This document shows positions 19,801 through 44,356 of a stretch of 64,000 nt of DNA, in pieces. Both the position numbers and the translations under genes were made by a program. The stretch lies in the NCBI GenBank assembly GCA_022841795.1, contig JALHQU010000016.1:3238-67237 (forward strand). The letters are read 5' to 3'. Source of the stretch: Fimbriiglobus sp. (lineage in GTDB: Bacteria; Planctomycetota; Planctomycetia; Gemmatales; Gemmataceae). The notes under the pieces were generated by a model. It was given only the letters and a program-made list of their open reading frames with translations, made no database searches and was not told where the DNA came from. Positions within the stretch are counted from its first letter, which is position 1, and the number at the start of each line of letters is the position of its first letter.

Positions 19801-20234
19801 TCCGCCGCTGGCAGGCGGTGCTGCCGGTGCAGCCGCTGTTCACCGTGGTCACGCGGGATCGGGTCGGGGCGGTGGCGACGGCGAAGGAGTTGCAGTGGGC
19901 GGCCGCGTACAGCCGCGTCAGCGGGGAACTGCCGGCGGAGGATTTGCCGAAATGGAAGATCGGCCAGGGCGAGTTCCAGGCGGTGGCCCGGTTCGACCTG
20001 GACTGCACCACCGCGGGCAAGGCGAAGCTGGTGTTCGGCGACACCACCGGGTTGCAATTGTGGCTCGACGGCACCCCGCTCGAAGCCAGCAAGGAGGTGA
20101 CGGTGAACCTGTCCGCCGGCGTCCACACGGTCACGGTTCACGTCAAACTGGATCAGCGGAAGGACCCGCTGCGGGCGGAACTGGCCGAGGTGGACGGAAG
20201 CCCGGCCCGCGTCCGCATCGTCGGCGGGAAGTAG
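16821..20234 (+). CDS. PVC-type heme-binding CxxCH protein with membrane-bound dehydrogenase-like beta-propeller and HEAT-like repeats
   Basis: Signal peptide MPRLLFLATCSLLLAPSAPAQ. Dehydrogenase-like N-terminal domain. Cytochrome c motif MNCLKCHGVAG. Start trimmed from 16350 to 16821. Confidence 0.75.
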   Translation: MPRLLFLATCSLLLAPSAPAQRNAKIPDPDPELERKTFVLPDGFEVNLWAADPLLAKPIQMNFDSKGRLWVAASEVYPQIKPGQKADDKILILEDTDGDGKADKTTVFADGLLIPTAVEPDQLGGCFAADSTELVHFSSPDPKTGKATKKRIVLSGFGTEDTHHILHTFRTGPDCNLYMSQSIYIHSHIETPHGVRRLNAGGIWQFRPETERLEVFARGWVNSWGTAWNKWGTTFATDGAGGEGINYVVPGAAYTTARDVARILPGLNPGSPKYCGLEVASGRHLPDDWQQNLITNDFRGHRVCRYVVQEDGSGFAAKEQKEVIKSTHPAFRPIDVKMGPDGAIYIADWYNPIIQHGEVDFRDERRDKTHGRIWRVTAKGRPLVPKPKISGATVDELLELLKAPEDWTRSHARRELKARGEKEVLPKLRDWAVQQTDEHAVLEALWVQEALGAIKSRVFLQSLRAKDHGVRASAYRVFGEWFGWQTDPLSVASRIEMATDDHPRVRLEAVRALAKLPGSAEAIAAALDKPTDRWLDYAIWLSLRETKDQWLPGVKAGTFDFGGDPKKLVFALQAAGESDVTKPLLKIASNEKLPPSQRQTAWLTLAKVGGAAELSDVFQLGSFGSTEYEVEVLNALEQSLRNRRVGTIDIKRWGGLYDLGHHESAAIRHPVYRLMGLIKADDYRGFLEPRITNPKYDLADHQVACEGLVLMGGKKSIEFFDKLSAKDQKPEFRRLAAISMASLDASAAAKIAAELLGVEKSAPDAEPLFAAFVGRKGGAAALAKALADTKLSADVAKVGVRVARTSAAPDQKLIDALTRAGGLTEPKRTLTKAELDQMVADVKAKGDPARGEQVYRRAEMNCLKCHGVAGAGGQVGPDMTSIGASAQVDYLIESMLNPNAKIKEGYNSFLVNTDDGRSFSGIKVRETPAEIVFRDAEDREITVRKADKPDIKPGKSLMPEGLTDPLTHQEFLDLVRFLSELGKGPYLAQPGKVVRRWQAVLPVQPLFTVVTRDRVGAVATAKELQWAAAYSRVSGELPAEDLPKWKIGQGEFQAVARFDLDCTTAGKAKLVFGDTTGLQLWLDGTPLEASKEVTVNLSAGVHTVTVHVKLDQRKDPLRAELAEVDGSPARVRIVGGK

Positions 20235-20236
20235 CC

Positions 20237-21184
20237 ATGCGGATCGTGAAGTGCCAGATCATGCAGCCCGCTCGCCTCTGGCTCTCGGACAGCGGCCGCA
20301 AGCTGGCCGTGGCGGAAGCGTGGCGGGGCGTGGACGTGTACGACCTGCACACCGGCTGTGTCGGGGTGGGGCTGGGGGGCGGGTTCATCGGCCGGCTGAT
20401 CGACGGGTTCGACGCCGACGACCGCCTGCGGGTGATCCCGGGCAAGGCGTTCCCGCTCAACCTCGGTCGGATGGTCCACACGGAGGTGACGAAACTCCCC
20501 CTCATTCCTCCCGCCTGGGCCGACGAGGTGGCCGCGACCGTGGCGGGTCCGATCGCCCTGTCGGCGGACGGCCGCCGGTGCGTGGCGGCGATCGGGTTCA
20601 CCCTGCGGCTGTTCGTCAAAGGGGCGAGCGGGGAGTGGGCCGAGAAGTGGAAGCGGGACACCGAGGCCCACCTGTCCGGTCGCATCCGCTTCCTGCCGGG
20701 CGACACCCGCTGCTCGTTCGTGGAAACGGTGTTCGCGGGCAAGCACAACCCGTTCACCCGGTACAGTCTGGTCGTGTGGGACATGCGGGCCGGGCGGGAG
20801 GCCGGCCGGAGTACACCGACCCGCCGGCCGTTCACGCACGTCGTGCCGGTCGGCCGCCAACTCGTGGTCGGAACGAACGCCACGGCCGGCAAGGTGCTGT
20901 CGAGTGAGCTGGTCGTGTTCGAGGCGGATCACCTGGACCGCGAACCGCGGACGGTGGCGTCCGGCAAGGATCCGATCGCGGCGGTGTGTGCCGACCCGCT
21001 CGGCCGGTTCGTACTCACCGCGGCCGGCAAACTGGTGACGCAGTGGGACCCGGCCACTTGGCTGCCGGCCCGCACGTTCAACTGGAAGATCGGCACCATC
21101 ACCTGCCTGACGGTGAACCCGAACGGCACCATCGCCGCCGCCGGCGGCTACCAGGGCAAGGTGGCCGTGTGGGACGTGGAGTGA
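20237..21184 (+). CDS. WD40-like beta-propeller protein (tandem paralog 1)
   Basis: Start is 3 bp after the stop of the heme protein. C-terminal blade FNWKIGTITCLTVNPNGTIAAAGGYQGKVAVWDVE. Confidence 0.6.
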   Translation: MRIVKCQIMQPARLWLSDSGRKLAVAEAWRGVDVYDLHTGCVGVGLGGGFIGRLIDGFDADDRLRVIPGKAFPLNLGRMVHTEVTKLPLIPPAWADEVAATVAGPIALSADGRRCVAAIGFTLRLFVKGASGEWAEKWKRDTEAHLSGRIRFLPGDTRCSFVETVFAGKHNPFTRYSLVVWDMRAGREAGRSTPTRRPFTHVVPVGRQLVVGTNATAGKVLSSELVVFEADHLDREPRTVASGKDPIAAVCADPLGRFVLTAAGKLVTQWDPATWLPARTFNWKIGTITCLTVNPNGTIAAAGGYQGKVAVWDVE

Positions 21185-21187
21185 CCG

Positions 21188-22114
21188 ATGCGGATCGTGG
21201 CGTGCAGTTACAAGTCGGTGCGGGAGGTCGGGTTCACCCCGGACGCCCGCACCCTGGTCGCGCTCGGGCACCTGTCCACGCCCGGCCGGTGCGAGTGGCA
21301 CGACCTGGCCGGCGACCGCCCGCCGCGGGTCCACACGCTGAGCAGCATCTCGTGGAACGGGTTCGCCGTCAGCCCGCACGACGGCACCGTCCTCATCGGC
21401 GACGCGACCGAACTGCTCGAATTCCCGCCGGCCGGCGGCGAGGTGATCCGGCACGCCTACCCCGACAACCGGCTGTGGAAGGTGGCTGTCTCGCCGGACG
21501 GCCGGCGGCTGGCGTGCGCCGCCGACGGCATCTCGTTCGGCCGCAACCGCGTGCCCATCCGGCTGAGCGGGCACACCCGCACGGGCAAGGGGTGGAAACA
21601 GGCGTGGAAGTTCGACGGCACCGGCACCCGGTTCGGCCAGCCAGTGTTCCTGCCGGACGGCAAGCGGATCGCGGTGTTGCAGTCCGGCGGCAAGAAGGTG
21701 AAAGGCCGGTTCGAGCCGCGGGCCACGCTGTCCGTCCTGAGCACGCAGGGGAAGCTGCTTCACGAGCGGTCGTACGCCGGCGCGTTCCTCGACCTGGCCG
21801 TGTGCGGGGAACACCTCGTCCTCGGCGACAGCCACCTGCTCCGCGTACTTCCGCTCGCCGACCTGGACGCCGAGCCGGTCCTCGTCAGCCTGGGCAACAA
21901 GCACCTGTACGCCCTGTGCGGCGACCCGCTCGGCCGGTTCCTGCTGGCCGGGTGCGGGAAGCAGGTGCTGGAGTTCGACCCGGCGTCGTGGAAGCCGGCC
22001 CGCCAGTTCGACTGGAAAATTGGTACGGTGGCGTGCCTGGCCGTGTCTGCCGACGGCACCGTCGCCGCCGCCGGCGGGGACAAGGGCAAGGTGGCCGTGT
22101 GGGACGTGGGGTGA
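21188..22114 (+). CDS. WD40-like beta-propeller protein (tandem paralog 2)
   Basis: 4 bp after the previous stop. C-terminus FDWKIGTVACLAVSADGTVAAAGGDKGKVAVWDVG is nearly identical to paralog 1. Confidence 0.6.
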   Translation: MRIVACSYKSVREVGFTPDARTLVALGHLSTPGRCEWHDLAGDRPPRVHTLSSISWNGFAVSPHDGTVLIGDATELLEFPPAGGEVIRHAYPDNRLWKVAVSPDGRRLACAADGISFGRNRVPIRLSGHTRTGKGWKQAWKFDGTGTRFGQPVFLPDGKRIAVLQSGGKKVKGRFEPRATLSVLSTQGKLLHERSYAGAFLDLAVCGEHLVLGDSHLLRVLPLADLDAEPVLVSLGNKHLYALCGDPLGRFLLAGCGKQVLEFDPASWKPARQFDWKIGTVACLAVSADGTVAAAGGDKGKVAVWDVG

Positions 22115-22376: not shown

Positions 22377-22832
22377 TCACCCGCCGTGCCGCCGCTTCAC
22401 CAGGTTCACCAGCCGGTCGAGTTCGGCCAGCAACCGCGAGCGGTCTTTCGGCGTCATCCCGCTCGGCCCGCCGCTCGCCACCCCAGCTTCCCGCAGGTCG
22501 GTCATCAGGTCGCGGACGGCCACCGCCTCGCCCACCGTGTTCTCGTCCAGCACCCGGCCCTTCGGGTCGATCGCGATGCCGCCGGCGGCCACCACGCGGG
22601 CGGCCAGCGGGATGTCGGCGGTGACGCACAGGTCGCCGGGTTTACACTGCTCCGCAATCCAGTCGTCGGCCGCCCCGAACCCGGCCACCGTCATCAGCGA
22701 GACGAGCGGGTGGTCTTGGATCGCCATCGGGGTGTTCGCCACCACCACCACGGGCACGGCATACCGCCCCGCCACCCGGTACGTCTCGGGCTTCACCGGG
22801 CAGGCGTCGGCGTCGATGTAGATGGTCGGCAT
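22377..22832 (-). CDS. yaiI: YaiI/DUF188 (UPF0178) family protein
   Basis: MPTIYIDADACPVK N-terminus and overall similarity to E. coli YaiI (ADxPLAA, RDLMTDLREAG). Confidence 0.8.
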   Translation of the reverse strand: MPTIYIDADACPVKPETYRVAGRYAVPVVVVANTPMAIQDHPLVSLMTVAGFGAADDWIAEQCKPGDLCVTADIPLAARVVAAGGIAIDPKGRVLDENTVGEAVAVRDLMTDLREAGVASGGPSGMTPKDRSRLLAELDRLVNLVKRRHGG

Positions 22833-23539
22833 GGGGGCATTTTACTCCGCCGCTCCCGCCGCCACTCGAAGAACCACTGCGCCGCCAGCCCGAGGCCCAG
22901 CACCGCCGCCGCCCACTGGTAGAACGTCAGCCCCCACGCGGCGACCGGCTCCGGGCGGATGAACTCGGTGGCGAAACGGTACACCGCGTAGGCGATCAGG
23001 TACAGTTGCAGGCGGTGGTCGGGGATGAGCCGGCGGGCCGTCACCGAGCCGACGACGATCGCCATGCCCAGGTGGAACAGGCTCTCGTAGATCTGCGTCG
23101 GGTGGCGGCGGACGCCGTCGCCGAAGTCCACGCCCCACGGCAGGGCGGTTTCGGTGCCGGCGCAGCAGCCGTTGAAGAAGCACCCCCACCGGCCGACGGC
23201 AACGGCCGCGGCCAGCGGCAGGGCGAACGAGTCGCCCGTCTTCACCCACACGCCGAGCAGCAGCTTCACCCCCTCGACGGCCAGGTACGCGCCGATCAGC
23301 CCGGTGGTGATCGTCTTGCCGTCGGCCAGCCAGTTGACGGACCCCGCCTCTACGCCGACCAGGAACGGCAGGCGGGCGCCGAACACCCCGCCGACGAACC
23401 CGGCGGCGGCCAGGCAGAAGCGGTGGGCGAGCGGCAGGGAGGCGACGGCCGGCACCGGCGGCAGTAGCCGGCGGACGACGACGAACACCACCGCCGCCAG
23501 CAGCATGAACCCGGCGTACAGGAGGCGGGGTGAGGGCAT
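22793..23539 (-). CDS. lgt: prolipoprotein diacylglyceryl transferase
   Basis: Multi-TM protein with Lgt signature blocks GRWGCFFNG and HPTQIYESL. The 3' end overlaps the yaiI start by about 40 bp. Confidence 0.75.
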   Translation of the reverse strand: MPSPRLLYAGFMLLAAVVFVVVRRLLPPVPAVASLPLAHRFCLAAAGFVGGVFGARLPFLVGVEAGSVNWLADGKTITTGLIGAYLAVEGVKLLLGVWVKTGDSFALPLAAAVAVGRWGCFFNGCCAGTETALPWGVDFGDGVRRHPTQIYESLFHLGMAIVVGSVTARRLIPDHRLQLYLIAYAVYRFATEFIRPEPVAAWGLTFYQWAAAVLGLGLAAQWFFEWRRERRSKMPPCRPSTSTPTPAR

Positions 23540-23583
23540 GAAGAGGATTCACCGCGGAGGCCGCAGAGGAAGACAAGAAAACT

Positions 23584-23674
23584 AACCACAGAGGCACAGG
23601 GACACAGAGAAGACGAGAAGAATTGCTCGGAAACTATCTTCCTGTCTTCTCTGTGTCCCTGTGCCTCTGTGGTT
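23584..23674. repeat. AACCACAGAGGCACAG... hairpin repeat (31-bp arms), copy 1
   Basis: AACCACAGAGGCACAGGGACACAGAGAAGAC-29 nt-GTCTTCTCTGTGTCCCTGTGCCTCTGTGGTT. Related copy at 44279..44356. Confidence 0.8.
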
Positions 23675-23726
23675 CAAACTCTGTTTTTCTCCGCGCCCTC
23701 TGCGGCCTCCGCGGTGAAATCTGCTT

Positions 23727-25166
23727 TCAGGTCACCACCAGCGGCTTCCGCCCCGCCGGCGCCGGGCGGTCGGCCAGCGGCGGGAGCGGGACGTGGCCGT
23801 CGCGGTACAGCGTGTTGTACGTGCAGAACGGCACCACATGCCCGCTCGGCAGCACGTGGGCGAGGCAGCACTTCATCGCCTGCCGGGTGTCGAACGTGTG
23901 TGCATCGAGGAAGCTGGTGAGGGTGACGCGGAACACCTGCTCGCCGGTCAGTTGCTCGGCCAGGGCTTTCGTCAGGAACTCGGGCGTGTCGGATGAGCGG
24001 GGGACAACATCCCCCGAACCCCCTCCACACCCGCCGGGGCCGCACCCGCAGTCGCTGAGCACCGCGTTCACGATCTGCTTCGCCCGCGCCGGGGTGTACA
24101 CGATGCTGTTGGCGATCAGGTCCATGTGCGGCCGCACGTCGATCAGCCGGTTGATCGGCAGCGGGGTTTCCCCGCCGCGGTACAGGTACGCCAGCATGTG
24201 GCAGTTCGGGTGCGCACACGGCAGCGGGATGAAGTCCTCGACCGCCAGCATCCCGCCGGTCTGGGCCACCAGCCCCTTCACCAGGTCGGGCATGGTCGCC
24301 CGGCGTTCGAGATCCTCCGGCTGAACGTGCCGCCCGCAGAAGGTGGCGAGTTGGTAGCTCACCCCGCGGACGCCCGGCTTGCCCAGCCCGAACCGCAACA
24401 CCGCCCCGACTTCGTGCAGGTTCACGTCCGAGACGGTACACACGAGCGTGGCCCGCAGGCCGAACTCGGCCAGCACGTCGAGCGCCGCCAGCTTCACGTC
24501 CAGCAACTCCTCGCCGCGGAGCGCCGTGTGCGTGGCCGGGTCGAACCCGTCGAACTGGAGGTAGATTTCCAGCCGATCCCGCATCGGGGCGAGCGCCTCC
24601 GCCAGCTTGCGGTCCTTCGCCAGCCGGATGCCGTTGGTGTTGATCATCACCGCCTGAACCGGCTGGTCGTAGGCGTACCGCACCATCCGCGGCAGGTCCG
24701 GGTGCAGGGTCGGCTCCCCGCCGGACAACTGGATCACGTCCGCCACCCCCTCCACCTCGATCAGCCGATCGACCATGCCCGTGAACGTGTCGAAACTGAC
24801 GTGTGTGCCGCCCGGCCCGCTCTCGGCGAAGCACATCGGGCACTTCAGGTTGCACCCGCTGGTGATCTCCACCAGGGCGATGCAGGTGTGCTGCTCGTGT
24901 TCGGCACACAGGCCGCAGTCGAGAGGGCAGCCCTGGTCCGGCTCGACGCCGTACTTCCGCGGCGAGCGGGCCGGCTGGGCGTACTCGTGCCGGTCCCAGT
25001 ACGCCACGTCCGAACAGACGAAGTCGTCGAACCGGCCGTGTTCGGGGCAGTGCTTGCGGAAGTACACCCGCCCGTCGCGGACGACGATCTTGGCGTCCAG
25101 CACCCGCCGGCAGTGCGGGCACAGGCTGCGGGTGGTGCCCAGGAACGTGTAGTCGCGGGTGGTCAT
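23727..25166 (-). CDS. radical SAM protein with N-terminal zinc-ribbon and C-terminal Cys-rich region (subfamily undetermined)
   Basis: CNLKCPMC (CxxxCxxC) plus SGGEPTLH SAM-binding motif. N-terminal CPHC...CPEH. C-terminal CGCGPGGCGGG and CCLAH...PFC clusters. Start overlaps upstream stop by ATGA. Confidence 0.75.
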   Translation of the reverse strand: MTTRDYTFLGTTRSLCPHCRRVLDAKIVVRDGRVYFRKHCPEHGRFDDFVCSDVAYWDRHEYAQPARSPRKYGVEPDQGCPLDCGLCAEHEQHTCIALVEITSGCNLKCPMCFAESGPGGTHVSFDTFTGMVDRLIEVEGVADVIQLSGGEPTLHPDLPRMVRYAYDQPVQAVMINTNGIRLAKDRKLAEALAPMRDRLEIYLQFDGFDPATHTALRGEELLDVKLAALDVLAEFGLRATLVCTVSDVNLHEVGAVLRFGLGKPGVRGVSYQLATFCGRHVQPEDLERRATMPDLVKGLVAQTGGMLAVEDFIPLPCAHPNCHMLAYLYRGGETPLPINRLIDVRPHMDLIANSIVYTPARAKQIVNAVLSDCGCGPGGCGGGSGDVVPRSSDTPEFLTKALAEQLTGEQVFRVTLTSFLDAHTFDTRQAMKCCLAHVLPSGHVVPFCTYNTLYRDGHVPLPPLADRPAPAGRKPLVVT

Positions 25167-25462
25167 AGCCGGATGAGTTTACAGGTGATTGCGAAGTAGC
25201 CAATGCCCGCACAGGGCACCAGCATCAGTAACACGATTGTGACGATCACCACGTTCCACGCCTGATCGGAGGTCGGCAGCCACCTGGCCCGTCTGGGTTT
25301 GTAGTCCTCGTCGAAGTAACCCTGACGCTTGGAGCGGGCGTGGCGGGCGACCGGCAGCTTGACGGGCGGCTCAGTCTGGGGTGGCGGACGAGGTTCCGCA
25401 GCGGACGGAGGGTCGGACGGCTTCTTTTCCGGTGGCGGCGGTGGAGGTTCGGGCGGGGTCAT
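25163..25462 (-). CDS. proline-rich tail-anchored small membrane protein (paralog 3 of 3)
   Basis: Start trimmed to MTPPEPPPPPPEKKP. Conserved EPPVKLPVA, YFDEDYKPRRAR and C-terminal TM LLMLVPCAGIGYFAITCKLIRL. Confidence 0.55.
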   Translation of the reverse strand: MTPPEPPPPPPEKKPSDPPSAAEPRPPPQTEPPVKLPVARHARSKRQGYFDEDYKPRRARWLPTSDQAWNVVIVTIVLLMLVPCAGIGYFAITCKLIRL

Positions 25463-25482
25463 GTGATCGTGGCACCGGCGGG

Positions 25483-25839
25483 TCACAGCCCGACGAGACA
25501 GGCGATGAAGAGGAAGGCGAACCCGGCGCACGGGAGGAGCAACACCAGCGCGATCACGAGAAGCACTACGTTCCACGGCGATCTCGTCCCCTGCTCCGGC
25601 GAGCGCTGGCGGGCCGTCCGCGGGCGGTAGTCGTCGTCGAACCTGTAGTCCGTGGGCGGCTCTCTCCACGGTTCGTCCGGCACCCGGTGGGCGACCGGCA
25701 GTTTGACGGGCGGTTCTGGGGGAAGGGGCGGTGGTAGCGGCGGCGGGAGCGGCGGTGGAGCGGAGGCCGCTTTCGCCTCCGGCGGATGGGGCGGCAGTGG
25801 CGGTGTGGGTTCGGGCGGGGGTGGGTCGGTCGGGGTCAT
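25483..25839 (-). CDS. proline-rich tail-anchored small membrane protein (paralog 2 of 3)
   Basis: MTPTDPPPPEPTPP... EPPVKLPVA, RFDDDYRPRTAR, C-terminal TM LLLPCAGFAFLFIACLVGL. Confidence 0.55.
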   Translation of the reverse strand: MTPTDPPPPEPTPPLPPHPPEAKAASAPPPLPPPLPPPLPPEPPVKLPVAHRVPDEPWREPPTDYRFDDDYRPRTARQRSPEQGTRSPWNVVLLVIALVLLLPCAGFAFLFIACLVGL

Positions 25840-26105
25840 GGGGTGGTAGCGGTTTTAGAAGCAGTGGCGGGCTTGGTGATGCCGGTCGGCTGCTGTAAGG
25901 CGCAGACTATGAAGAGAAGCCCGCACCCGGCTATCGGTAGGAGTACCGCGAGCAACACGATGAGCATCCCCAACCGCTGCCGTCGCTTGATCTCCTGATC
26001 CGACACGCGGTTGGCCTCAGCCCGACCGACGCGACGGGCAATTGGTGGTTTGGCCGCCGGTTCGGGCGGGACTGGCGGAGGCGGGGGTGGGTCGGACGGG
26101 TTCAC
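25836..26105 (-). CDS. proline-rich tail-anchored small membrane protein (paralog 1 of 3)
   Basis: MNPSDPPPPPPVPPEPAAKPPIARRV, C-terminal TM LLPIAGCGLLFIVCAL. ATGA overlap with the next gene. Confidence 0.5.
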   Translation of the reverse strand: MNPSDPPPPPPVPPEPAAKPPIARRVGRAEANRVSDQEIKRRQRLGMLIVLLAVLLPIAGCGLLFIVCALQQPTGITKPATASKTATTP

Positions 26106-26237
26106 GGGCGTCGCTCCACCGGCGGTGTGACCGCACTATACCGCCGCCCCCGCCGGGCCGCAACCGGGTGGGATTCCAGACGCGGGCGGCGGGACGACGG
26201 GGTAAACTACCCCGGGTGAACTGCCGGAGGGGATGTC

Positions 26238-26525
26238 ATGTCCACCGTCATCGTGAGAGGGGTGGTGCGGAACGGTCGGGTCGAGCTGAGCCGCCCGCTC
26301 GATCTGCCGGACGGGGCGGAGGTGGAGGTCCACGCGCCGGAATCGGATCGGCCGATGACCCCCGAGGAGATCGCCGCCGCCCTCGCGCTCATGGACCAAA
26401 TCGAGCCGGTGGAGTGGACGGATGAGGAGCGGGCGGCGTGGGATGCGGAGCGACAGGCCAAGAAGGAACGGGAGAAGGCGACGTTCTTCGAGCGCGGCGA
26501 GCGCAATCGGAGGATCTGGGAGTGA
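26238..26525 (+). CDS. vapB: VapB-type antitoxin (AbrB/DUF104-like swapped-hairpin N-terminus)
   Basis: MSTVIVRGVVRNGRVELSRPLDLPDGAEVEVHA. Shine-Dalgarno GGAGGGG upstream. 4-bp GTGA overlap with the downstream PIN gene. Confidence 0.7.
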   Translation: MSTVIVRGVVRNGRVELSRPLDLPDGAEVEVHAPESDRPMTPEEIAAALALMDQIEPVEWTDEERAAWDAERQAKKEREKATFFERGERNRRIWE

Positions 26526-26941
26526 CCCGGTATCTCCTCGACAGTGGGATTCTTGGTGACTACATCACCCGGCGAAACGGGGTGTACGAACACGCCCTGG
26601 CTGAAAAGAGGCGAGGCAACCGCATCGGCACGGGGACACCGGTTCTCGGGGAGGTGGTCAGCGGGTTGGAGCGGAGCGCCACCCGCGAGCGGAACATGCA
26701 ACGGCTGCACACCCACCTGCCCAGCCTAACCCTGTGGCCGTTCGACGAGGCAGCGGCATTCGAGTACGGGCGGTTGGAAGCCGAGTTGCTCCGGATCGGC
26801 CGGCCGATGCAGACCATCGACATCGAACTGGCCGCCATCGCATTCGTACTGGGCAACTGCATTGTCGTGACCGTGGACAGCGATCTGTCGGCTGTGCCCG
26901 GTCTGAAGGTAGAAAACTGGCGCATCGCACCTCCCGGCTGA
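26522..26941 (+). CDS. vapC: PIN-domain toxin VapC
   Basis: GTG start overlapping the antitoxin stop. YLLDSGIL N-terminal acidic motif and PIN-like C-terminal VVTVDSDL. Confidence 0.7.
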   Translation: MTRYLLDSGILGDYITRRNGVYEHALAEKRRGNRIGTGTPVLGEVVSGLERSATRERNMQRLHTHLPSLTLWPFDEAAAFEYGRLEAELLRIGRPMQTIDIELAAIAFVLGNCIVVTVDSDLSAVPGLKVENWRIAPPG

Positions 26942-44280: not shown

Positions 44281-44356
44281 CCACAGAGGCACAGAGACAC
44301 CGAGAAGTCAGAGAACCGTTCTGTCGTCTTCTCTGAGTCTCTGTGCCTCTGTGGTT
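44279..44356. repeat. AACCACAGAGGCACAG... hairpin repeat, copy 2
   Basis: AACCACAGAGGCACAGAGACACCGAGAAG ... TCTTCTCTGAGTCTCTGTGCCTCTGTGGTT, between moxR and the DUF58 gene. Confidence 0.8.

Follow-up and report, generated by a model that had tools for sequence, protein, structure and literature searches.

Tail-tag systems in which unrelated proteins carry a C-terminal transmembrane (TM) helix, and in which a membrane enzyme presumed to recognise the tag is encoded next door, are known as PEP-CTERM/exosortase, GlyGly-CTERM/rhombosortase, and MYXO-CTERM. Two enzyme families of lipid chemistry have also been described. GDGT-MAS binds glycerolipids, among them the phosphatidylglycerol-type lipid archaetidylglycerol, and joins their tails (PMC9433317), and the active site of Lgt opens at the periplasmic position of the lipobox Cys (PMC4728403). 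In Planctomycetes, homologues of Tes appear in the literature only as putative enzymes of branched glycerol dialkyl glycerol tetraether (brGDGT)-type lipid synthesis (PMC8941075; bioRxiv 10.1101/2023.10.20.563219), and Cys-type variants of Lgt receive no more than brief mention (PMC13251419). Here, we describe a locus in a 64,000-nucleotide stretch of Fimbriiglobus sp. (contig JALHQU010000016.1; the whole stretch is called the window below), in which a Tes-like radical S-adenosylmethionine (SAM) gene stands between genes for small membrane proteins with a Cys-containing tail and a gene for an LGT-family transferase. We tentatively propose, giving it somewhat less than an even chance, that this cassette is a dedicated protein-lipidation system of Planctomycetia, in which the LGT paralogue lipidates the Cys and the Tes-like enzyme tailors the lipid tails. 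A literature search, whose reach did not extend to the description of TrsS (Haft & Tolstoy 2025), found neither the three-part cassette nor the Cys-tail proteins described.

Six genes lie in series on the minus strand of the window: three small Pro-rich open reading frames (ORF1, ORF2, and ORF3), the radical SAM gene, the LGT-family gene, and yaiI (Table 1). The first four had been listed in an earlier note on this DNA and are all present where it placed them, and its view that the small genes are paralogues is borne out by alignment (36–44% pairwise identity). All three begin MxPxxPPP, continue with a Pro-rich region (25–37% Pro), and close with a hydrophobic helix bearing LLP(C/I)AG and, a few residues before the end, a second Cys. 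The blocks EPPVKLPVA and FD(D/E)DY(K/R)PR, which the note had ascribed to all three, occur in ORF2 and ORF3 only. Similarly, of the two ATGA overlaps that it reported, the one between the ORF3 stop and the radical SAM start is present, while the other joins the ORF1 stop to the ORF2 start; a gap of 20 nt lies between ORF2 and ORF3.

On the sequence evidence, ORF1–3 are real genes. Relatives preserve their reading frame, comparisons among paralogues and orthologues give a dN/dS of 0.33–0.7, and GC content in the proposed frame is highest at the third codon position (0.71–0.82; 0.94 in the flanking genes). Public gene callers annotated orthologous small genes upstream of the radical SAM gene in the closest related loci (L123–L125), and orthologues were annotated in L126 and L127 too. 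The orthologues in L123–L125 start from the same GTG context and read NPSDPPP...PVAKPPLA(H/Y)R...DDFD(E/D)xYEPRQPRR...LLPCAG...C, with one, two, or three copies among these otherwise near-identical genomes. Public data further hold a protein identical to ORF3 (P0121), a C-terminal homologue of ORF3 (P0122), and an ORF1 orthologue of 71% identity (P0123), and tblastn with ORF1 gave matches in L001–L003. No Pfam or NCBIfam family matched ORF1–3, and a profile built from them found only 3 matches among 5.8 billion proteins. Sequence homology is thus nearly blind for these proteins, and a feature-based scan of upstream ORFs was needed. Applied to the whole window, a filter for a TM helix followed by Cys and a short tail returned ORF1–3, one unrelated DUF4870 protein, and nothing else.

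We then compared 122 related loci, 42 from a genome scan with the radical SAM protein and 80 from a metagenome scan with the LGT-like protein. The 42 genome loci are almost all labelled Gemmataceae, Planctomycetia, or Planctomycetota. The order of the unit is one to four membrane proteins (the partners), the radical SAM protein, and the LGT-family transferase. Of 39 genome loci, 31 have a Cys-tail ORF whose stop falls no more than 160 nt upstream of the radical SAM gene, whereas elsewhere in those loci such tails make up 7 of 4648 ORF ends (0.15%); the 39 loci are not phylogenetically independent, yet the divergence among the ORF sequences is too great for BLAST to connect them. An LGT-like gene comes after the radical SAM gene in 36 of the 40 genome loci that have downstream sequence, and where metagenome loci have enough upstream sequence, the radical SAM gene immediately precedes the LGT-like gene (45 of 61). 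In loci lacking the radical SAM gene, a Cys-tail protein stands directly before the LGT-like gene in 14 of about 17 cases (for example, ...IIYFFETC-CSNNP and ...LLLLVC-LGGGFKI), so that the partners' association with the LGT-like gene is no looser than that with the radical SAM gene. Some LGT-like loci, such as L050, have neither.

In the closest relatives, L123–L125 (radical SAM proteins 90–91% identical), the partner/radical SAM and radical SAM/LGT junctions each overlap by 4 nt, and synteny extends across Planctomycetia down to 49% radical SAM identity. These observations support, at the level of sequence, the functional tie between the small ORFs and the radical SAM gene that the earlier note had drawn. 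It had held that the tie would fail if such ORFs never accompanied the enzyme elsewhere, and the search found them together in the 31 loci above. In divergent branches labelled Planctomycetaceae (radical SAM 49–55% identical), the partners are Zn-ribbon multi-TM proteins placed either upstream of the radical SAM gene or between it and the LGT-like gene, with F[FV]x[TA]C at a helix end and sometimes one more helix after it. The N-terminal parts of partners are not conserved between lineages and may be Pro-rich, acidic, Zn-ribbon, or polytopic. All-against-all clustering of ORFs revealed no further broadly conserved neighbour except a membrane protein of ~200 aa (weak Pfam 6TM_PilS; conserved W-x-GE-x-RVN-x-x-R), which is found upstream of the Cys-motif proteins in 34 loci (examples in Table 1) and of which no copy was found in the window. 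For the Zn-ribbon and 6TM partners, Pfam and NCBIfam gave nothing beyond generic Zn_ribbon and the weak 6TM_PilS match.

Several loci deserve separate mention. The only non-Planctomycete locus recovered, L042 (Terriglobia, radical SAM 27% identical), has no cassette. Two metagenome-assembled genomes labelled Acidobacteriaceae and Alcaligenaceae (L017 and L035) carry the full Planctomycete-type cassette; these labels probably reflect mis-binning and not true occurrence outside Planctomycetota. In a metagenome contig, a radical SAM gene (L098:983-2386, minus strand; 35% identical protein) lies on the opposite strand from the 6TM and LGT-like genes that it adjoins, a rearranged cassette. An apparent fusion of the radical SAM and LGT-like genes in L037 was rejected, as the two genes do not share a frame and the long open stretch arises artefactually from high GC content. 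In-frame stops in LGT-like high-scoring segment pairs, considered as possible selenocysteine (Sec) codons, were also rejected; they are true stop codons past which tblastn had extended.

The sole feature common to the partner proteins is a TM helix that ends in [F/L][A/I][A/V/T]-Cys and is followed by a tail of about seven residues. From 94 distinct tails in 68 loci, the consensus is F/L(–5) L/V/F(–4) F/L/I(–3) A/I/C/L(–2) A/V/T(–1) C A/S/L(+1), and the stretch beyond the Cys has a median length of 7 residues; no Pfam or NCBIfam model matched the tails. This composition is close to the lipobox, [LVI][ASTVI][GAS]C. Partners with an N-terminal Zn-ribbon have an odd number of TM helices before the Cys, and in single-helix partners the N-terminal domain is long and lacks a signal peptide. 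From the odd helix number and these N-termini, the Cys is predicted at the periplasmic end of an in-to-out helix, where it should occupy the position of a lipobox Cys. Compared with a lipoprotein precursor, which has an N-terminal signal peptide, a lipobox, and a mature protein, the partners are built differently: their helix is C-terminal, after 40–300 residues, and little lies beyond the Cys. Classical-looking lipoprotein relatives nevertheless occur at L009, L016, L024, and L076, the last with a mini-lipoprotein precursor (...SFVLFGC-WC...) at the partner position.

The radical SAM protein matches Zn_ribbon_HMPTM (PF23545, E 1.7e-20) and Radical_SAM (PF04055, E 5e-19). Its best NCBIfam model is TrsS (NF045646), which it matches end to end (residues 11–457 against profile positions 2–436 of 441) with 326 bits, short of the cutoff of 490; the match to Tes (NF045702) is limited to residues 12–322 and reaches 285 bits, short of the cutoff of 450. 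In sequence it matches GDGT-MAS (MJ0619, PDB 7TOL) end to end (E 4.7e-69, 29% identity). An AlphaFold model (predicted confidence, pLDDT, 73, with low-confidence loops) gave 7TOM in a Foldseek search (E 2.8e-33, TM score 0.74/0.71 over 487 columns) and 7TOL likewise, while all other radical SAM structures match only the core barrel (SkfB, TM score 0.36). Neither Pfam, NCBIfam, nor the structure search found a SPASM/twitch or RRE domain, and NCBIfam matches from SPASM models cover only the core (residues ~95–260).

The cofactor motifs of GDGT-MAS have been defined (PMC9433317), and we judged invariance of the corresponding residues over 60 homologues down to 49% identity. The rubredoxin-like site C16-X2-C19-X20-C40-X2-H43, the N-terminal auxiliary cluster's ligands (C80X3C84X2C87 with H90/H93, aligning with the MJ0619 stretch GCPYDCGLCPNH), and the radical SAM cluster C105-N-L-K-C109-P-M-C112 are all invariant. 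The C-terminal Cys residues 317, 322, 433, 434, and 448 are conserved and align with Cys residues of MJ0619. These include the motifs CNLKCPMC, CPHC..CPEH, and the C-terminal Cys clusters that the earlier note had read from the sequence. The residue opposite the labile Met439 of MJ0619 appears to be Thr, although the offset was deduced by hand from a HMMER alignment and is uncertain. An additional insertion, C373-x-C375-x4-C380 (C-G-C-G-P-G-G-C, window positions 24027–24050), is 80–93% conserved in the radical SAM clade, has no counterpart in MJ0619, and sits in a low-confidence loop of the model. We conclude that the protein is a full-length GDGT-MAS/Tes family homologue with the four-domain architecture. 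The end-to-end match, the fold, and the invariant motifs thus bear out an aside in the earlier note, there called pure speculation, that the enzyme might be tetraether-synthase-like. It passes neither the Tes nor the TrsS equivalog cutoff, and tetraether lipid synthase activity is putative.

The LGT-like protein matches Pfam LGT (PF01790) with 82 bits (gathering threshold 24.9), as do all 20 orthologues tested. It falls far below the cutoffs of all NCBIfam lgt equivalogs, including NF000778 and TIGR00544 (for the latter, 41 bits for the window protein, 41–50 bits overall, cutoff 118.9). A profile of the orthologues matches Escherichia coli Lgt (5AZB, E 3.5e-9), which is also the sole significant PDB match of the predicted model (probability 1.00, TM score 0.60; 7-TM Lgt fold), with much of the periplasmic head insertion missing. 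Invariant R117, Y184, R188, E192, and R195 correspond to E. coli R143, Y235, R239, E243, and R246; the equivalent of G154 and HPxQxYE are also kept, and that of Y26 is probably kept as invariant Y8. Of these, R143 and R239 bind and activate phosphatidylglycerol (PMC4728403, PMC13251419), and Y235, E243, R246, and G154 are among the residues for its binding or activation (PMC4728403). The substitutions relative to E. coli are H103T, N146C, and E151C. In place of the canonical signature G142-R-L-G-N146-F-I-N-G-E151-L-W-G154 (GRLGNFINGELWG in E. coli), the protein has GRWGCFFNGCC, with the R143 and G154 positions kept, and in place of H103-GGL the clade aligns T-T-G-L-I-G. The HGGL motif is the proposed site of the lipobox peptide, and E151 that of donor selection (PMC4728403, PMC13251419). 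H103 is essential in E. coli Lgt (PMC4728403, PMC13251419), although some phyla have Y, W, or F at this position in canonical Lgt. Nearly all of the window protein's 150 best 50%-identity representatives read GCF..GCC or GCF..GLT, and by this measure the Cys-type LGT is a sizeable uncharacterised clade and not a one-off.

How might these components act together? The data show directly to which families the two enzymes belong, that the three-part synteny is conserved, and where the Cys motif lies and what it is made of; topology, the role of the Cys as acceptor, the kind of lipid, and the sequence of steps we infer. The substrates would be the small Pro-rich proteins and, in other lineages, their Zn-ribbon or polytopic counterparts. 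Such a protein would insert with its N terminus in the cytoplasm, so that the Cys after the last in-to-out helix would come to lie on the periplasmic side; there, the LGT-family enzyme of the downstream gene would move a glycerolipid moiety from a phospholipid onto the Cys thiol. Acting from the cytoplasmic side on the termini of alkyl chains, the Tes/GDGT-MAS-type enzyme would couple or cyclise lipid tails, either in the donor lipid or after attachment to the protein, and the resulting anchor would be looped or bilayer-spanning rather than a plain diacylglycerol. A farther-reaching version holds that Planctomycete Tes homologues belong to a protein–lipid conjugation machine and not to brGDGT-type lipid synthesis, with LGT attaching the lipid and the radical SAM enzyme coupling tails across the bilayer, so that proteins become tethered to a membrane-spanning or macrocyclic lipid; this we regard as improbable at present.

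The weight against a lipidation system lies mainly in sidedness, in replaced residues, and in loci without the radical SAM gene. The radical SAM enzyme is cytoplasmic and the proposed acceptor Cys and LGT active site are periplasmic, so direct action would need access through the bilayer. Both H103 and N146, given as absolute requirements of E. coli Lgt (PMC13251419), are replaced by T and C, and E151 by C. A second Lgt homologue of Mycobacterium smegmatis with N146C is presumed to have low activity (PMC13251419), and because of this and of the replaced residues, the LGT-like protein may not be a diacylglyceryl transferase at all. About a quarter of the LGT-like loci have no radical SAM gene within 6 kb, and four radical SAM loci have no LGT-like gene within 5 kb. 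Finally, tails of 0–5 residues and V, I, or T at –1 are not canonical for a lipobox.

Alternatively, Planctomycetes might use the LGT-like protein as their general, housekeeping Lgt, with Cys-tail genes that are ordinary small lipoprotein or membrane genes linked to it by chance and a radical SAM gene of unrelated role. The sources do annotate these proteins as prolipoprotein diacylglyceryl transferase, N146C and E151C/D occur in "distantly related" Lgt proteins (PMC13251419), and loci such as L050 lack both other components. A hidden Markov model search found no second, canonical LGT gene in ~700 kb of sequence, an amount too small to be informative, and a literature search for Lgt in Planctomycetes found no paper. 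Chance linkage, however, does not account for a three-gene order kept from 91% to 49% radical SAM identity with 4-nt overlaps, the low background rate of Cys tails would go unexplained, and the scores fall well short of the TIGR00544 cutoff; we give this explanation little credence. A somewhat better, though still unlikely, account is a membrane-lipid module, in which the Tes-like enzyme makes tail-linked (membrane-spanning or macrocyclic) lipids, as the literature has proposed for bacterial Tes homologues, the LGT-like protein moves or re-heads these lipids, and the Cys-tail and 6TM proteins are accessory subunits such as anchors, chaperones, or regulators. It accords with the homology to GDGT-MAS, with the putative brGDGT-type role already assigned to Planctomycete Tes homologues, with the PilS-like 6TM protein that joins the cassette in 34 loci, and with the placement of the cassette, divergent, next to fabD-fabG-acpP-fabF in two complete Planctomycetaceae genomes. 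It offers no explanation for the one universal feature of the partners, a lipobox-like Cys at a helix end, nor for the variation of their copy number from 1 to 3 between near-identical genomes or their persistence with the LGT-like gene when the radical SAM gene is absent. The radical SAM protein also scores under the Tes cutoff, and the sole non-Planctomycete locus is without the cassette.

The earlier note had leaned toward a third possibility, that the radical SAM enzyme modifies the small proteins themselves, as in the biosynthesis of ribosomally synthesised and post-translationally modified peptides (RiPPs), for instance by a thioether or crosslink at the helix Cys, with the small genes as precursor paralogues. 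One to four small paralogous genes do lie directly upstream, often translationally coupled, and they evolve fast and vary in copy number. In the Gemmataceae clade, a second Cys lies mid-helix (PCAG) and could be reached from the cytoplasmic side, and GDGT-MAS chemistry proceeds via a C–S intermediate (PMC9433317). This reading nonetheless fared badly. The domains expected of a maturase (SPASM, twitch, RRE) were not found, the only full-length structural match is a lipid enzyme, and maturases such as SkfB match the core barrel alone. No leader-like region is conserved between lineages, the conserved Cys is at the predicted periplasmic helix end, and the partners stay with the LGT-like gene where the radical SAM gene is absent. 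We therefore think it quite unlikely, and return to the lipidation system as our preferred, if tentative, reading.

Were the Cys lipidated, a signal-anchor helix would bear a modification of lipoprotein type at its C-terminal end, and substrates with almost no "mature" part would change the scope of the term lipoprotein. Should the tails also be coupled as proposed, the product would represent a class of lipid anchor not described before, and Tes-type chemistry would for the first time have a protein-linked product. The cassette offers a conserved genomic context and candidate substrates for Planctomycete Tes homologues and for Cys-type Lgt paralogues (N146C/E151C), both noticed in the literature without an assigned function. 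Surveys that use Tes homologues as markers of bacterial tetraethers (brGDGT palaeothermometry) may be counting a Planctomycete protein-lipidation system. Short, fast-evolving partner genes can escape notice because they are largely missing from protein databases.

Around the cassette, a nested hairpin between the radical SAM and LGT-like genes folds with a free energy of –132 kcal/mol (z –18). Its core recurs in shorter form in another intergenic spacer at ~44281–44354, and the hairpin is missing at this site in L123–L125, where the two genes overlap by 4 nt. In Rfam, no family matched it at threshold and only generic hairpins matched below threshold. For these reasons we rejected a conserved regulatory RNA; it looks like an inserted repeated palindromic element of REP/MITE type, and its insertion may affect co-transcription here. 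The TATAGT upstream of ORF1 is a possible –10 element, found at equal spacing before the orthologous GTG start in L123; a scan for consensus sigma-70 promoters and intrinsic terminators found none. The earlier note had let the cluster run on into lgt and yaiI. The first is a core component, though of a divergent paralogue type, and the second falls outside: YaiI was rejected as a cassette member, being absent from all 42 genome loci and present only in the closest relatives, L123–L125. In L123 and L124, a SnoaL_2-like gene stands between the LGT-like gene and yaiI. Downstream of yaiI on the opposite strand are two adjacent WD40/beta-propeller paralogues (20153–22114, plus strand), as in L124. 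Upstream of ORF1 and divergent from it, a 95-aa protein without a Pfam match (26238–26525, plus strand) overlaps a PIN-domain protein (26516–26941, plus strand) in a VapBC-like toxin–antitoxin layout, with gatB next. In the two complete Planctomycetaceae chromosomes (L126:300-2348 and L127:46-3615), cassette members (6TM, Cys-motif proteins, radical SAM, and LGT-like) are divergent from rpmF-fabD-fabG(-acpP-fabF).

Table 1. Features of the cassette and its surroundings (window positions unless a locus is given)
Feature	Position	Strand	Description
ORF1	25836–26105	–	89 aa, GTG start; Pro-rich N terminus, basic patch RRQR, TM helix with IAGC and FIVC, then 22-aa tail
ORF2	25483–25839	–	118 aa; 37% Pro before helix, EPPVKLPVA, FDDDYRPR, TM helix ...LLLPCAGFAFLFIAC-LVGL
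ORF3	25163–25462	–	99 aa, start is an internal ATG of a longer ORF; build like ORF2, C terminus ...LVPCAGIGYFAITC-KLIRL
Radical SAM protein, GDGT-MAS/Tes/TrsS family	23727–25166	–	479 aa; from Pfam, NCBIfam, PDB 7TOL match, and model
LGT-family membrane transferase	22793–23539	–	248 aa; "Cys-type" signature GRWGCFFNGCCAG
yaiI (YaiI/DUF188)	22377–22832	–	Overlaps end of LGT-like gene by 40 nt
Nested near-perfect hairpin	23548–23718		~170 nt, between radical SAM and LGT-like genes
TATAGT, possible –10 element	26135–26140	–	30 nt upstream of ORF1 GTG; from sequence
6TM_PilS-like protein (~200 aa), example	L038:3578–4171
6TM_PilS-like protein (~200 aa), example	L054:1910–2536
6TM_PilS-like protein (~200 aa), example	L126:2575–3273

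Set against the described systems, the radical SAM protein shares with GDGT-MAS/Tes (Methanocaldococcus jannaschii MJ0619, 7TOL/7TOM, NF045702) the four-domain layout over its full length, including CX2CX20CX2H, the N-terminal CX3CX2C cluster with His, the radical SAM CX3CX2C cluster, and the C-terminal Cys residues. It differs from MJ0619 in being bacterial (Planctomycetia) and only 29% identical, in the extra CxCx4C, and apparently, though uncertainly, in having Thr at the Met439 position; its setting between Cys-tail genes and an LGT-family gene is unreported for Tes. The TrsS radical SAM (seleno)protein (NF045646) gives the best-scoring model, yet at 326 versus 490 bits, and unlike TrsS (seleno)proteins the window gene has no in-frame TGA and no Sec. 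With E. coli Lgt (5AZB), the LGT-like protein shares the Pfam family, the 7-TM fold, and the phosphatidylglycerol-binding residues; unlike it, it is only 248 aa long, has the Cys-type signature, and has apparent dedicated substrates encoded alongside. The N146C-type signature is shared with homologues such as M. smegmatis MSMEG_5408, whose function is uncharacterised and for which the literature reports neither dedicated substrates nor a radical SAM partner. The C-terminal sorting signals named at the outset differ in that here a signature Cys follows the helix, no basic cluster is obligatory, and the enzyme is an LGT-type transferase and not a sortase-like protease. Radical SAM RiPP clusters (SkfB/sactipeptides) resemble the window in their tandem small paralogous ORFs, upstream and translationally coupled, but in the window and its relatives the enzyme is without SPASM or RRE and the "precursors" are membrane proteins of 50–300 aa with unconserved N termini. 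As proposed, then, the cassette would combine lipoprotein-type lipidation with Tes-type lipid chemistry, through two enzymes that belong to known superfamilies and lie outside the characterised Tes, TrsS, and canonical Lgt groups.

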